Origin: Escherichia coli
Lineage (GTDB): Bacteria; Pseudomonadota; Gammaproteobacteria; Enterobacterales; Enterobacteriaceae
Reading direction: 5' to 3' (one strand)
Length of the DNA: 64,000 nucleotides
NCBI RefSeq assembly: GCF_030013205.1
Contig: NZ_CP122648.1
A program made the position numbers. Within the stretch, counting starts at the first letter, position 1. Every line of letters starts with the position of its first letter. Shown one piece after another: positions 1 through 3,000 of this stretch.

Positions 1-3000
1 TTGTTTGTGAGTACGACCATCCTGCACACACATCAGGCGAATTTCGTTTGCCCATGCTGTCCAGTTCGGTTCTTTGGGACGAACCACCTCGCCGTCACAT
101 TCGGCGGCCTGCTCGTACAGGGCGATGATTTTTTTCCAGAGCCACTGTGCGCAGGTCAAATCATCCTGCGTTCCCCACTGGCGCTTTTTAGGGCTGAATA
201 CAACCGCATCAGGATGGCGAGTTAAAAACTCCTGTTCAGCCGTTTGCGTGTCCGGTTGCGAAGCGTCCGGACGAGAAGAGGTTTTATTCTCTGTAGTAAT
301 CTCTGTTGTATTCTCTGTAAGATCATTGGGCCATTTTGACCCGATGACAGCGTGTCGTTTTGAACCAATGGATCGTGTCATTTTGCGCCCATCCATCAGG
401 TCACTTTGACCCGATGGAGAAGTGCATTTTGACCTGATGGATTCGTTCACTTTGACCTCTTCTAAAAGCTCACTTTCATAGTTGATCGTGTAGAAGTTGG
501 TCATGTCACGCTTCGATTTATTGAGTTGCTCGCGACGCAAAACCCCAAGTGATTTCAGGCTTGCAAATGTGCGTTTCAGAGTGGACTCTGACCAGAACGG
601 AAACTGCTCCAGCCACTGTTCTGTCGTGTTATAAACCCAGCGAATTCCGCCATGCTCAGTGCCTGAATTCGTTTCATTCAGCCAGTAATGAAGCTGCTGC
701 AACACAATTGCCTCATTCAGACCAATACGGCATGCAAGATCACGATTTATCACAATGGGCTGGGATGTCATTAACAGGCTCATGACCGACCTCTATTTCC
801 CTGAATTTACGACGAAACTGTTCGAGCGGACTGAAGCATTCATGTTCATAGCCTTCACGGAGGTAGATAACCCGTTGTGTTTCCGGCTCCCAACGAATGA
901 CTCTGACGGGCACTCCGTAGTGATCTTTGAACCAGCGGTTAACTTGTCGCAAAGGACTGTCTCCTTCTGCCGGTTGAAATCACCCACAGCCCACTCTGCA
1001 AAGCTGTGGGTTACAATTTCCCTGTCACCTGGTACATTCACTGCATAGCAATACTCCACCTTCGCTTTTCCACCCGGTACAGGAAGCGCAATCAGTTGCG
1101 AGCGACGGTAGTGTGTTGTTAAACTGTTCATGCGTTAGTTTCTCCACAACCAGAAGCAATCGACGCCACGACGCCCGGAGCTGCACACTCGCGGGCGTTA
1201 CTCTTTTCCGGCGCACAAAAAACACGAAATAACAGTGTTAAATGCTCCTGCCACTTCGCCATTACTTGGTAGCTGTTCTCTTCGATTTGCTCACGCTCAG
1301 CCTGGTCAATAACTCCATCAGCAGTTGCCTTGCGTAAGTACTGGGAATGCTTGCCAATCCATTCTATTGACTCCATCAGCCGCTGATTAATGTCACCATT
1401 GTCAATGTCATCAATGACCACCAGCGGCACAAACACCCCATTACTACGACGGGCTATTGCATCTGTTACATGCCTGGTACCACTGGCATCCTGTAAAACC
1501 ATGGCCCACTCAAGTGGAAAAATTTGATCCCCACCGCTACGCAGTCTGTTATGCAATTGATCTTTTGCTGGGGTGATATCATCAGATTTATACAAACCAA
1601 GAATTTCTGCTGCTTCCTCATAGCCATGAGGTAAATCAGCAATCGTTCTTCGTATTGCTGCCACCAGCCATGCTGGTTGTTTATCAACTTTCCATTCAGG
1701 TTCTTTACCCACGGTTAATTCCTCATTTCTGTGGTGTTTTTATGCCGCAGCACTGTTAGTCTTTTGATATAAAGACACGTCAACTTTCAGTTTCCCGTTA
1801 GTAATTTTTTCTAACTGGTACGCTCGGCCTTCAGGAATAATCTCAGGCCACTCTGAAACAGACGGATGCTTAATACCTAGGGCTTCGGCGGTTTTACAAA
1901 CTCCGCCGAAATAATTAATCACGTCGGATTTCCGCATTTCTGTCTCCCGTTAAATTACGTCAAGCAGGAATGTAGGATATCCAACATGCCAATGTCAAGA
2001 ATCCTACATTGGCATGTGGTAGGATTGCCTACATGATGAACATGAGTGATCGTATTCGCCAAAGGCGAAAAGAACTGAACCTGACACAACAAGCACTGGC
2101 TGATTTGACTGGTGTGAACCGTGTCACGGTTACTGGATGGGAAAAGGACGACTACCAACCAAATGGAGCCAACCTTCAAGCCCTAGCCAACGCACTTAAA
2201 TGCGATCCTCTGTGGCTTGTTAGCGGAAAAGGCTCGCCTGAACCAAAGATAAATCTAAAACCTGAAATATTCGCAGTTAAAAAAGTCCCCCTCATCTCGT
2301 GGGTTCAGGCGGGTTCATGGACAATGACGGAGCCTGGTGTCAGGAAAGAAGATGCTGAAGAGTGGGTTTATACTACCGCCCTTGTATCAGAAATGGCATT
2401 TGCACTACGGGTCCGTGGTGATTCAATGACCAATCCCCTCGGCTCACCATCGATACCAGAAGGTTCTATCGTTATCGTAGAGCCAGATATTATTGATACA
2501 GAGTGTATTAACGGAAAAATCGTTGTTGCCCATATCAATGGTGGGCAAGAAGCGACACTCAAAAAATTTGTTGAGGACTGGCCGAACAGGTATCTCGTCC
2601 CACTAAATCCTAACTATAAAACTATTGAATGCGGTGAGAACTGCAGAATAGTTGGTCTTGTCAAACAAGTAATAATGGATTTTTGACACATCTTCCTCAC
2701 TATCGCAAAACCGGGGTATCCCCGGTTTTTTTATGAGCCTATCTTTTTATGTAGGATAACCAACATAAACTCTTGACACCTACATGTTGGATATCCTACA
2801 TTTGTTTTTAGAGTTGTGGTGAATGCGCAGGCTGATGCGCGAAAGACATTGCAGCTATTGCGGAAAAGAGCTGTTCGGCGGGGCAATTAAACGCCCGTGA
2901 GAGTCTGAAATAACCGCAAGCCGGAGATCAGCACCGGTCACCACAACAGCCACTGCTTTGGCGGTACCAGTTTGTACACTTGCTTCCGGCTGGTACCGCT

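Follow-up and report, generated by a model that had tools for sequence, protein, structure and literature searches.

We analyzed a 112-codon open reading frame (ORF) on the minus strand of a 64,000-nucleotide stretch of Escherichia coli DNA (contig NZ_CP122648.1, assembly GCF_030013205.1; the whole stretch is hereafter called the window). The ORF, at positions 793-1131, is ymfM (sfiC) of an e14-type lambdoid prophage, a gene that is already known. What is apparently unreported is its dual-coding anatomy and the read-through frame that stays open as far as the start of the O-like replication gene. We consider it probable that ymfM in these prophages is composed of a conserved N-terminal module, YmfM-N, followed by an out-of-frame read-through of an independently started DUF4222 gene, and that this tail is kept open toward O. 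The gene itself being known, the importance of the result lies in its annotation and in the attribution of its phenotype. The features on which the argument rests are the following.

793..1131, minus strand: ymfM (sfiC) orthologue, the 112-codon ORF (96% identity to K-12 b1148; phrog_1170)
964..1131, minus strand: YmfM-N, the conserved N-terminal module, codons 1 to ~56 (ratio of nonsynonymous to synonymous differences, pN/pS; AlphaFold; stand-alone homologues)
793..952, minus strand: YmfM tail, codons ~61-112, the +1 frame of the DUF4222 gene (pN/pS; variants; predicted local distance difference test score, pLDDT)
961..966, minus strand: perfect AAGGAG Shine-Dalgarno sequence of the DUF4222 gene, 8 nucleotides upstream of TTG 952 (read from the sequence)
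740..952, minus strand: DUF4222 gene, 70 amino acids, TTG start, -1 frame relative to ymfM (PF13973; phrog_1343; coding sequence of the Prokaryotic Genome Annotation Pipeline, PGAP)
781..795, minus strand: ymfM TAG (795-793) overlapping a GAGG Shine-Dalgarno sequence, then the O-like ATG (783-781) (sequence)

ymfM and its embedded DUF4222 gene

An earlier note on this DNA had described an unassigned ORF of 112 amino acids running from 1131 to 793, wedged between a CII-like gene and the replication initiator. The ORF exists as described, and it can be assigned. BLASTP against YmfM (b1148) of the E. coli K-12 prophage e14 gave 96% identity (108 of 112 residues, E 1e-84), and phrog_1170 was matched along the entire protein (residues 1-112 of 112, 1e-69). 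The remark that it belongs to no recognisable family is thus right for Pfam and NCBIfam, which, like PADLOC, returned no match for it, and wrong with regard to the K-12 protein and the phrog family. RefSeq annotates K-12 b1148 as “cell division inhibitor YmfM”, and the gene appears as YmfM or as hypothetical in the GenBank records of phages mEp460, PhiR49 and SKA5. The same module is carried by viable temperate phages, including mEp460, SfII, SfIV, PhiR49, Kati and Stx2c-converting phages. The earlier note was also right that this is a real gene of the early operon, tightly placed between the CII-like gene (YmfL family, NF041471) and the replication initiator. The TGA of ymfL overlaps the ymfM start codon as ATGA (1131-1128), and the ymfM TAG (795-793) lies inside TAGAGGTCGGTCATG, overlapping the O-like GAGG Shine-Dalgarno sequence. 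Its suggestion that a gene in this slot would control replication or lysogeny did not hold, the reported role being inhibition of host cell division during SOS induction (bioRxiv 10.1101/2020.11.19.390815).

The note had also recorded, and then passed over, a 70-amino-acid ORF with a TTG start (952 to 740), which overlaps the 112-codon ORF by 160 nucleotides in the -1 frame and extends 43 nucleotides past the O-like start. Across the shared 160 nucleotides, this is the better supported of the two frames. Its product matches Pfam PF13973 (DUF4222) with an E value of 1.5e-18 and 66.5 bits against a gathering cut-off of 27, covering profile positions 3-52 of 53, and matches phrog_1343 at 5e-34. 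Where E. coli genomes are 100% identical to the window across a compared segment of 551 bases (window 700-1250), the PGAP annotation has this ORF as a coding sequence (WP_001250270.1) and leaves the interval matching 953-1127 empty. Stand-alone DUF4222 proteins of 59-70 amino acids are annotated in Citrobacter, Klebsiella, Salmonella, Enterobacter, Kosakonia and other genera of the Enterobacteriaceae.

For comparison, we gathered 261 related loci by four scans of viral contigs together with genome contigs, and chose 11 representatives with less than 93% nucleotide identity, hereafter the 11 lineages; a scan of species-representative genome contigs contributed only 3 useful loci. The DUF4222 start lies exactly 179 nucleotides after the ymfM ATG in 254 of the 261 loci. 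The codon at this fixed position is TTG, GTG or ATG depending on the lineage, and a GGAG/GAGG motif is found no more than ~13 nucleotides upstream of it in 11 of 11 lineages. On this sequence evidence, we take the ORF at 740-952 to be a real, independently initiated gene. Upstream of ymfM itself, GTGGAGA is kept in 10 of 11 lineages, the exception (L210) having no normal start at the aligned position.

With its last 14 codons (PVNDIPAHCDKS, window 740-783), the 70-amino-acid DUF4222 variant overlaps the O-like start region in another frame, so the window contains a second short dual-coding stretch at 740-783. The PVNDIPAHCDKS tail is ~80% identical in 70-amino-acid homologues from Citrobacter, Klebsiella and Salmonella, and AlphaFold predicts it to be disordered.

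Next, we compared selection in the frames. Mean pN/pS over the 11 lineages was as follows.

Codons 1-56: ymfM frame 0.47; DUF4222 frame 1.02; third frame 1.03
Overlap: ymfM frame 1.51; DUF4222 frame 0.41; third frame 1.03

These values indicate that the first half is constrained in the ymfM frame and the overlap in the DUF4222 frame. Closer relatives gave the same picture. Between the window and K-12, all four substitutions in the overlap change a YmfM residue and are silent in DUF4222, and the single substitution in the non-overlapping part of ymfM is silent in YmfM. We also examined 80 e14-type viral contig sequences (46 unique), a sample selected for an identical N-terminal protein. Of the 34 variant alleles in the overlap, 22 change YmfM while leaving DUF4222 unaltered, 4 change DUF4222 alone and 8 change both proteins; thus 30 of the 34 alter tail residues, and the 22 of these 30 that are silent in DUF4222 include all the common variants. 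In the N-terminal part, 12 of 12 variants are synonymous, as has to be read with the preselection of the sample for an identical N-terminal protein. We conclude from these comparisons that YmfM codons 1 to ~56 form a conserved protein-coding gene under purifying selection, while the residues of the tail appear to be unconstrained. The 112-codon ORF therefore stands as one gene for its first ~56 codons, which encode a conserved protein; its last ~52 codons are an out-of-frame reading of DUF4222.

The predicted structures follow the same division. In the AlphaFold model of YmfM, block-mean pLDDT is ~78-88 for residues 11-60, 66 for residues 1-10 and below 50 for residues 68-112, and the N-terminal part is modelled as three strands with a helix at 42-66. 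YmfM-N is thus predicted to be a small folded module with a disordered tail. The DUF4222 protein is modelled confidently as a small beta-barrel, possibly of the SH3/Tudor type. Searches of PDB sequences with profiles of YmfM and DUF4222 returned nothing below E 0.7.

The two genes also occur apart. When 1.8 billion representative proteins were searched with a profile, many homologues of YmfM-N proved to be free-standing proteins 58-68 amino acids long, and their contexts run from a repressor gene to cro, a CII-like gene, YmfM-N, an optional gene of 239-264 amino acids, DUF4222 and a replication gene. Three loci (L004, L005 and L270) carry the 239-264-amino-acid gene between YmfM-N and DUF4222, assigned to KilA-N/ANT by Pfam in L270. 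In L266, a 63-amino-acid YmfM-N and a 59-amino-acid DUF4222 overlap by only 11 nucleotides and in a different relative frame. In three database proteins (P0071, P0076 and P0089), the DUF4222 read-through tail continues in frame from one of two unrelated N-terminal modules (MNSVNRFRPAKQF... or MNSLTANNRLSQQLVV...). These joins suggest a mosaic junction at the DUF4222 start, with the read-through recurring behind different upstream genes.

The YmfM-N profile (positions ~14-54) also matched repeats in large DUF7507, DUF11 and Y_Y_Y Ig-like proteins (P0226, P0231, P0235, P0238 and P0262; E 1e-11 to 1e-4), probably through a shared motif GG..V.Y.Y.V..G; we judged this to be beta-hairpin similarity and not homology.

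Existing records split the locus. PGAP-annotated genomes (L001) carry DUF4222 only, while K-12 RefSeq (L002) and phage GenBank records (L264, L265) carry only the 339-nucleotide ymfM, and none of the records inspected carries both. Close matches to the 551-bp region are present in 2,678 of 5,426 complete E. coli genomes, about half. With annotation split over so widespread a region, pangenome and functional tables list a single locus as two genes that seem unrelated and exclude each other.

The open tail and the replication gene

The earlier note had proposed conservation of the frame in homologous prophages as the check on its ORF, and the reading frame does stay open. No stop interrupts the 52-55 codons of the tail in any of the 11 lineages, and the 254 read-through loci include only one or two exceptions. 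When the synonymous codons of DUF4222 were redrawn from local usage, the chance of an open +1 frame was 0.04-0.14 per lineage (geometric mean 0.078); the empirical rate of open +1 frames in long ORFs of the same loci is 0.12. Most pairs of lineages show a synonymous divergence of 0.5-0.9, and the openness of the tail has therefore not simply been inherited unchanged. Codon choice carries the same signal. At the Val, Leu and Ile codons where a synonym could create a stop, 2 of 57 end in A or G, compared with 12 of 43 in safe contexts and 46% in background genes, and the stop-risk sites switch between T and C endings. Among four DUF4222 genes that are not read through, three carry 3-4 stops in the +1 frame. 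A within-gene synonymous-permutation test of the open tail (P 0.15-1.0) was set aside; it is weak because the codon usage it retains is already depleted in stop-making codons.

The two frames end differently. In 11 of 11 lineages, the ymfM stop lies 3-9 nucleotides before, or 5 nucleotides after, the ATGAGC start of the replication gene, whereas the DUF4222 stop is variable, overlapping the O start as ATGA at one extreme and lying ~83 nucleotides past it at the other. In the window, the junction reads TAG-AGGTCGGTC-ATG, placing the stop 9 nucleotides before the ATG, a spacing as expected of a pair coupled by termination and reinitiation. The conserved end point and the avoidance of stops suggest that the tail frame is kept open so that ribosomes on ymfM end at the O start, which would amount to translational coupling across an embedded gene.

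In L003 (Entomohabitans teleogrylli, 2690-2740), the ymfM frame runs to a stop 5 nucleotides past the O start codon. We considered this locus as an ancestral arrangement without DUF4222 and rejected it, the sequence being an internal deletion of DUF4222 that retains its first ~10 codons and a ...FRERFKRVDR remnant ending at the stop.

Our model for the locus is as follows. According to the literature, inactivation of the LexA-like cI repressor in the SOS response allows transcription of the operon, and expression of the ymfM fragment blocks formation of the FtsZ ring and causes filamentation. Codons 1 to ~56 would yield the small conserved folded module YmfM-N. At codon 60/61, the second gene, DUF4222, would start in the -1 frame from its own AAGGAG and TTG 952, and the remaining ~52 YmfM residues are the +1-frame reading of DUF4222, predicted to be disordered and free to vary. 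Ribosomes begun at ymfM would proceed to the TAG at 795-793 in the O Shine-Dalgarno sequence, 9 nucleotides before the ATG, and translation of O would in this way be coupled to that of ymfM.

Several points weigh against this model. The DUF4222 gene of L266, which is not read through, is open in the +1 frame as well. The 11 lineages share ancestry, and their probabilities can therefore not simply be multiplied. Ribosomes that start on DUF4222 would themselves cross the O start, so the tail may be unneeded for coupling. Compared with shuffled sequence, RNA in the region of the O start has less structure (z +1.9) and thus offers no obvious hairpin for coupling to open; the idea that coupling is needed to melt such a hairpin was dropped for the same reason. 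Translation of both the ymfM and the DUF4222 frames is something we infer from conservation, and placing the division-inhibiting activity in YmfM-N rather than in DUF4222 is a guess, taken up below.

The main alternative to coupling is a function of the YmfM tail itself, for example as a disordered region whose composition matters for stability, targeting or FtsZ inhibition; this function would then keep the frame open. Such a role would also account for the avoidance of stop codons across lineages, and it fits the high content of Ser, Thr and Ala that the tail shows throughout and a total YmfM length that varies little (111-117 amino acids). We nevertheless regard it as rather unlikely. The composition follows directly from the DUF4222 codons, pN/pS in the tail is 1.5 with low identity between lineages, the region is predicted to be disordered, and many family members of ~60 amino acids have no tail at all.

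Far less probable is a programmed -1 ribosomal frameshift that would fuse YmfM-N to DUF4222 into a product of ~119-130 amino acids. DUF4222 does lie exactly in the -1 frame in all 254 read-through loci, and a few database proteins (P0031, P0052, P0059 and P0065) are in-frame fusions. These fusions, however, each have a junction of their own and occur in no more than one to three contigs apiece (Logan/ENA assemblies), a pattern that indels or sequencing errors would produce. A heptamer of the form X_XXY_YYZ is absent from 10 of 11 lineages, and the lone site (nucleotide 65, L259) is far upstream of the overlap. The -1 frame contains a TGA 10 codons upstream of the TTG, and the 30-nucleotide interval that remains has no slippery sequence. 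The missing heptamer and the upstream TGA make a programmed frameshift unlikely, as do the conserved Shine-Dalgarno sequence and start codon of DUF4222 itself and the separate or differently phased genes of other genomes.

It is equally hard to maintain that DUF4222 is the only gene, the 112-codon ORF being a chance open frame and 953-1127 an untranslated spacer, as the PGAP annotation implies. That reading draws on the empty interval in PGAP, on the lack of a Pfam or NCBIfam model for the ORF and on a tail without amino-acid constraint. It does not explain why the N-terminal part has a pN/pS of 0.47 in the ymfM frame only, or why its 12 e14-type variants are all synonymous, even granting that the sample was chosen for an identical N-terminal protein. 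Nor does it fit the family of stand-alone homologues of ~60 amino acids whose genes likewise follow the CII-like gene, the conserved Shine-Dalgarno sequence and ATGA link to ymfL, or the confidently modelled YmfM-N fold. Least probable of all is that the 112-codon ORF is the sole gene and the 70-amino-acid ORF spurious, as the earlier note took it and as K-12 RefSeq and most phage GenBank records, which annotate just the 339-nucleotide ORF, imply; although the published phenotype is credited to ymfM, this is contradicted by the 66.5-bit DUF4222 match (cut-off 27), a pN/pS in the overlap of 0.41 in the DUF4222 frame against 1.51 in that of ymfM, the conserved DUF4222 start codon and Shine-Dalgarno sequence, free-standing DUF4222 genes beside replication genes in Klebsiella, Mixta and other hosts, and the confidently modelled barrel.

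Division inhibition and the early operon

The phenotype of the locus has been studied with a ymfM fragment cloned in pBAD24, which gave exclusively filamentous cells without Z rings (Ansari et al., bioRxiv 10.1101/2020.11.19.390815). This filamentation was independent of SulA, SlmA and MinC, and ymfM was concluded to explain the SOS-associated SfiC phenotype described in the 1980s (bioRxiv 10.1101/2020.11.19.390815). In K-12 (L002), the DUF4222 ORF (3502-3681) starts inside ymfM (3323-3661) and ends 20 nucleotides after it. The cloned K-12 “ymfM ORF” consequently includes the Shine-Dalgarno sequence and TTG start of DUF4222 together with 53 of the gene's 59 codons, which cover the whole of its folded part. 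The region was first implicated by library clones extending from ymfL to ymfN, in which the two ORFs are inseparable (PMC3614548, PMC6206680), and the published ymfM deletions remove both ymfM and DUF4222. We found no searchable paper that mentions DUF4222 together with ymfM. As the published clones and deletions affect both genes, the molecular identity of SfiC is ambiguous. Our guess leans to YmfM-N as the division inhibitor, because in those constructs it is translated from the start signals of the vector.

A linked pair of proposals goes further, and we hold it only tentatively: that the 3' half of ymfM is kept solely as an open frame carrying ribosomes to O, and that some or all of the SfiC phenotype, credited to YmfM for 40 years, is due to the DUF4222 protein, a possibly Tudor/SH3-like relative of the virulence regulator RgdR. 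A tail in which stops are avoided and residues are free would be a clean example from nature for the question of whether selection can target the point at which a ribosome stops and not the protein that it makes.

The minus strand of the window reads here as a lambdoid early-right operon, listed as PR, cro, ymfL, ymfM, DUF4222 and the O-like gene, with ymfM as its third gene. ymfM follows ymfL directly, through the ATGA overlap, in the rightward operon, from which a LexA/S24-type repressor gene diverges. The remaining features of this region are the following.

1969..1998, minus strand: PR-like promoter, TTGACA-18-TACATT (consensus scan; a consensus match only)
1740..1937, minus strand: cro-like gene, first in the rightward operon (PF14549 P22_Cro, 8e-22)
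1128..1712, minus strand: ymfL, CII-like regulator, 194 amino acids, upstream of ymfM (NF041471, 8e-54; phrog_101, CII-like activator, 3e-62)
1128..1145, minus strand: ymfL stop/ymfM start overlap ATGA (1131-1128), with GGAGA (1145-1141) 9 nucleotides upstream (sequence)
1..783, minus strand: O-like replication initiator, cut by the window edge (phrog_391, 3e-67)
2009..2686, plus strand: LexA/S24-type cI-like repressor (YmfK-like), divergent from the operon (ORF; syntenic gene in L001 annotated “LexA family protein”)

The O-like gene contains five tandem direct repeats (iterons) of ~23 nucleotides at 324-439, possibly continuing to 462, with a spacing of 23-24 nucleotides and the consensus CAT..G.CATTTTGACCCGATG. 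They are the lambdoid replication origin expected inside the initiator gene. A further pair of 15-nucleotide repeats lies near them (281-295 and 305-319). Records disagree on where the O-like gene starts: PGAP places the start at the ATG at window 783, and the RAST-annotated mEp460 record (L264, 1968-1980) at an ATG four codons downstream. An Rfam search of window positions 1-3000 gave only one sub-threshold chance match.

Comparison with known systems

The closest relative is the ymfM locus of K-12 e14, which has the same gene order (ymfK-like repressor, ymfT/cro, ymfL, ymfM, replication gene) and likewise an embedded DUF4222 ORF. The four residues at which the two YmfM proteins differ all lie in the tail, and none of the underlying substitutions alters DUF4222. 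The DUF4222 ORF has 70 codons in the window compared with 59 in K-12, and where K-12 carries a chimeric ymfN, the O-like gene of the window is intact, with its iterons.

In its reported effect, YmfM resembles lambda Kil, Rac KilR and Qin DicB (PMC3961180; bioRxiv 10.1101/2020.11.19.390815), short prophage proteins whose induction blocks the Z ring and causes filamentation. No sequence or structural similarity between these proteins and YmfM was detected. Unlike that of DicB, the reported effect of YmfM is independent of MinC, and ymfM differs from the genes of all three in lying in the PR operon beside the replication genes.

The product of the 740-952 ORF belongs to the same family as RgdR (ECs1581, prophage CP-933C; PMC3378721), like it a small prophage-borne protein. 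RgdR has 99 amino acids and an RGD motif, activates LEE1 and type III secretion, and represses motility (PMC3378721). The window protein has 70 amino acids and is encoded just upstream of the replication initiator; the RGD tripeptide is absent from its sequence, which sets it outside the RgdR subgroup.

Finally, as in Rz/Rz1 of phage lambda, two proteins are encoded in two frames of one stretch of lambdoid phage DNA. The products of Rz and Rz1 are both constrained and act together, whereas in ymfM/DUF4222 sequence constraint is confined to one frame, and the other is apparently only kept open.

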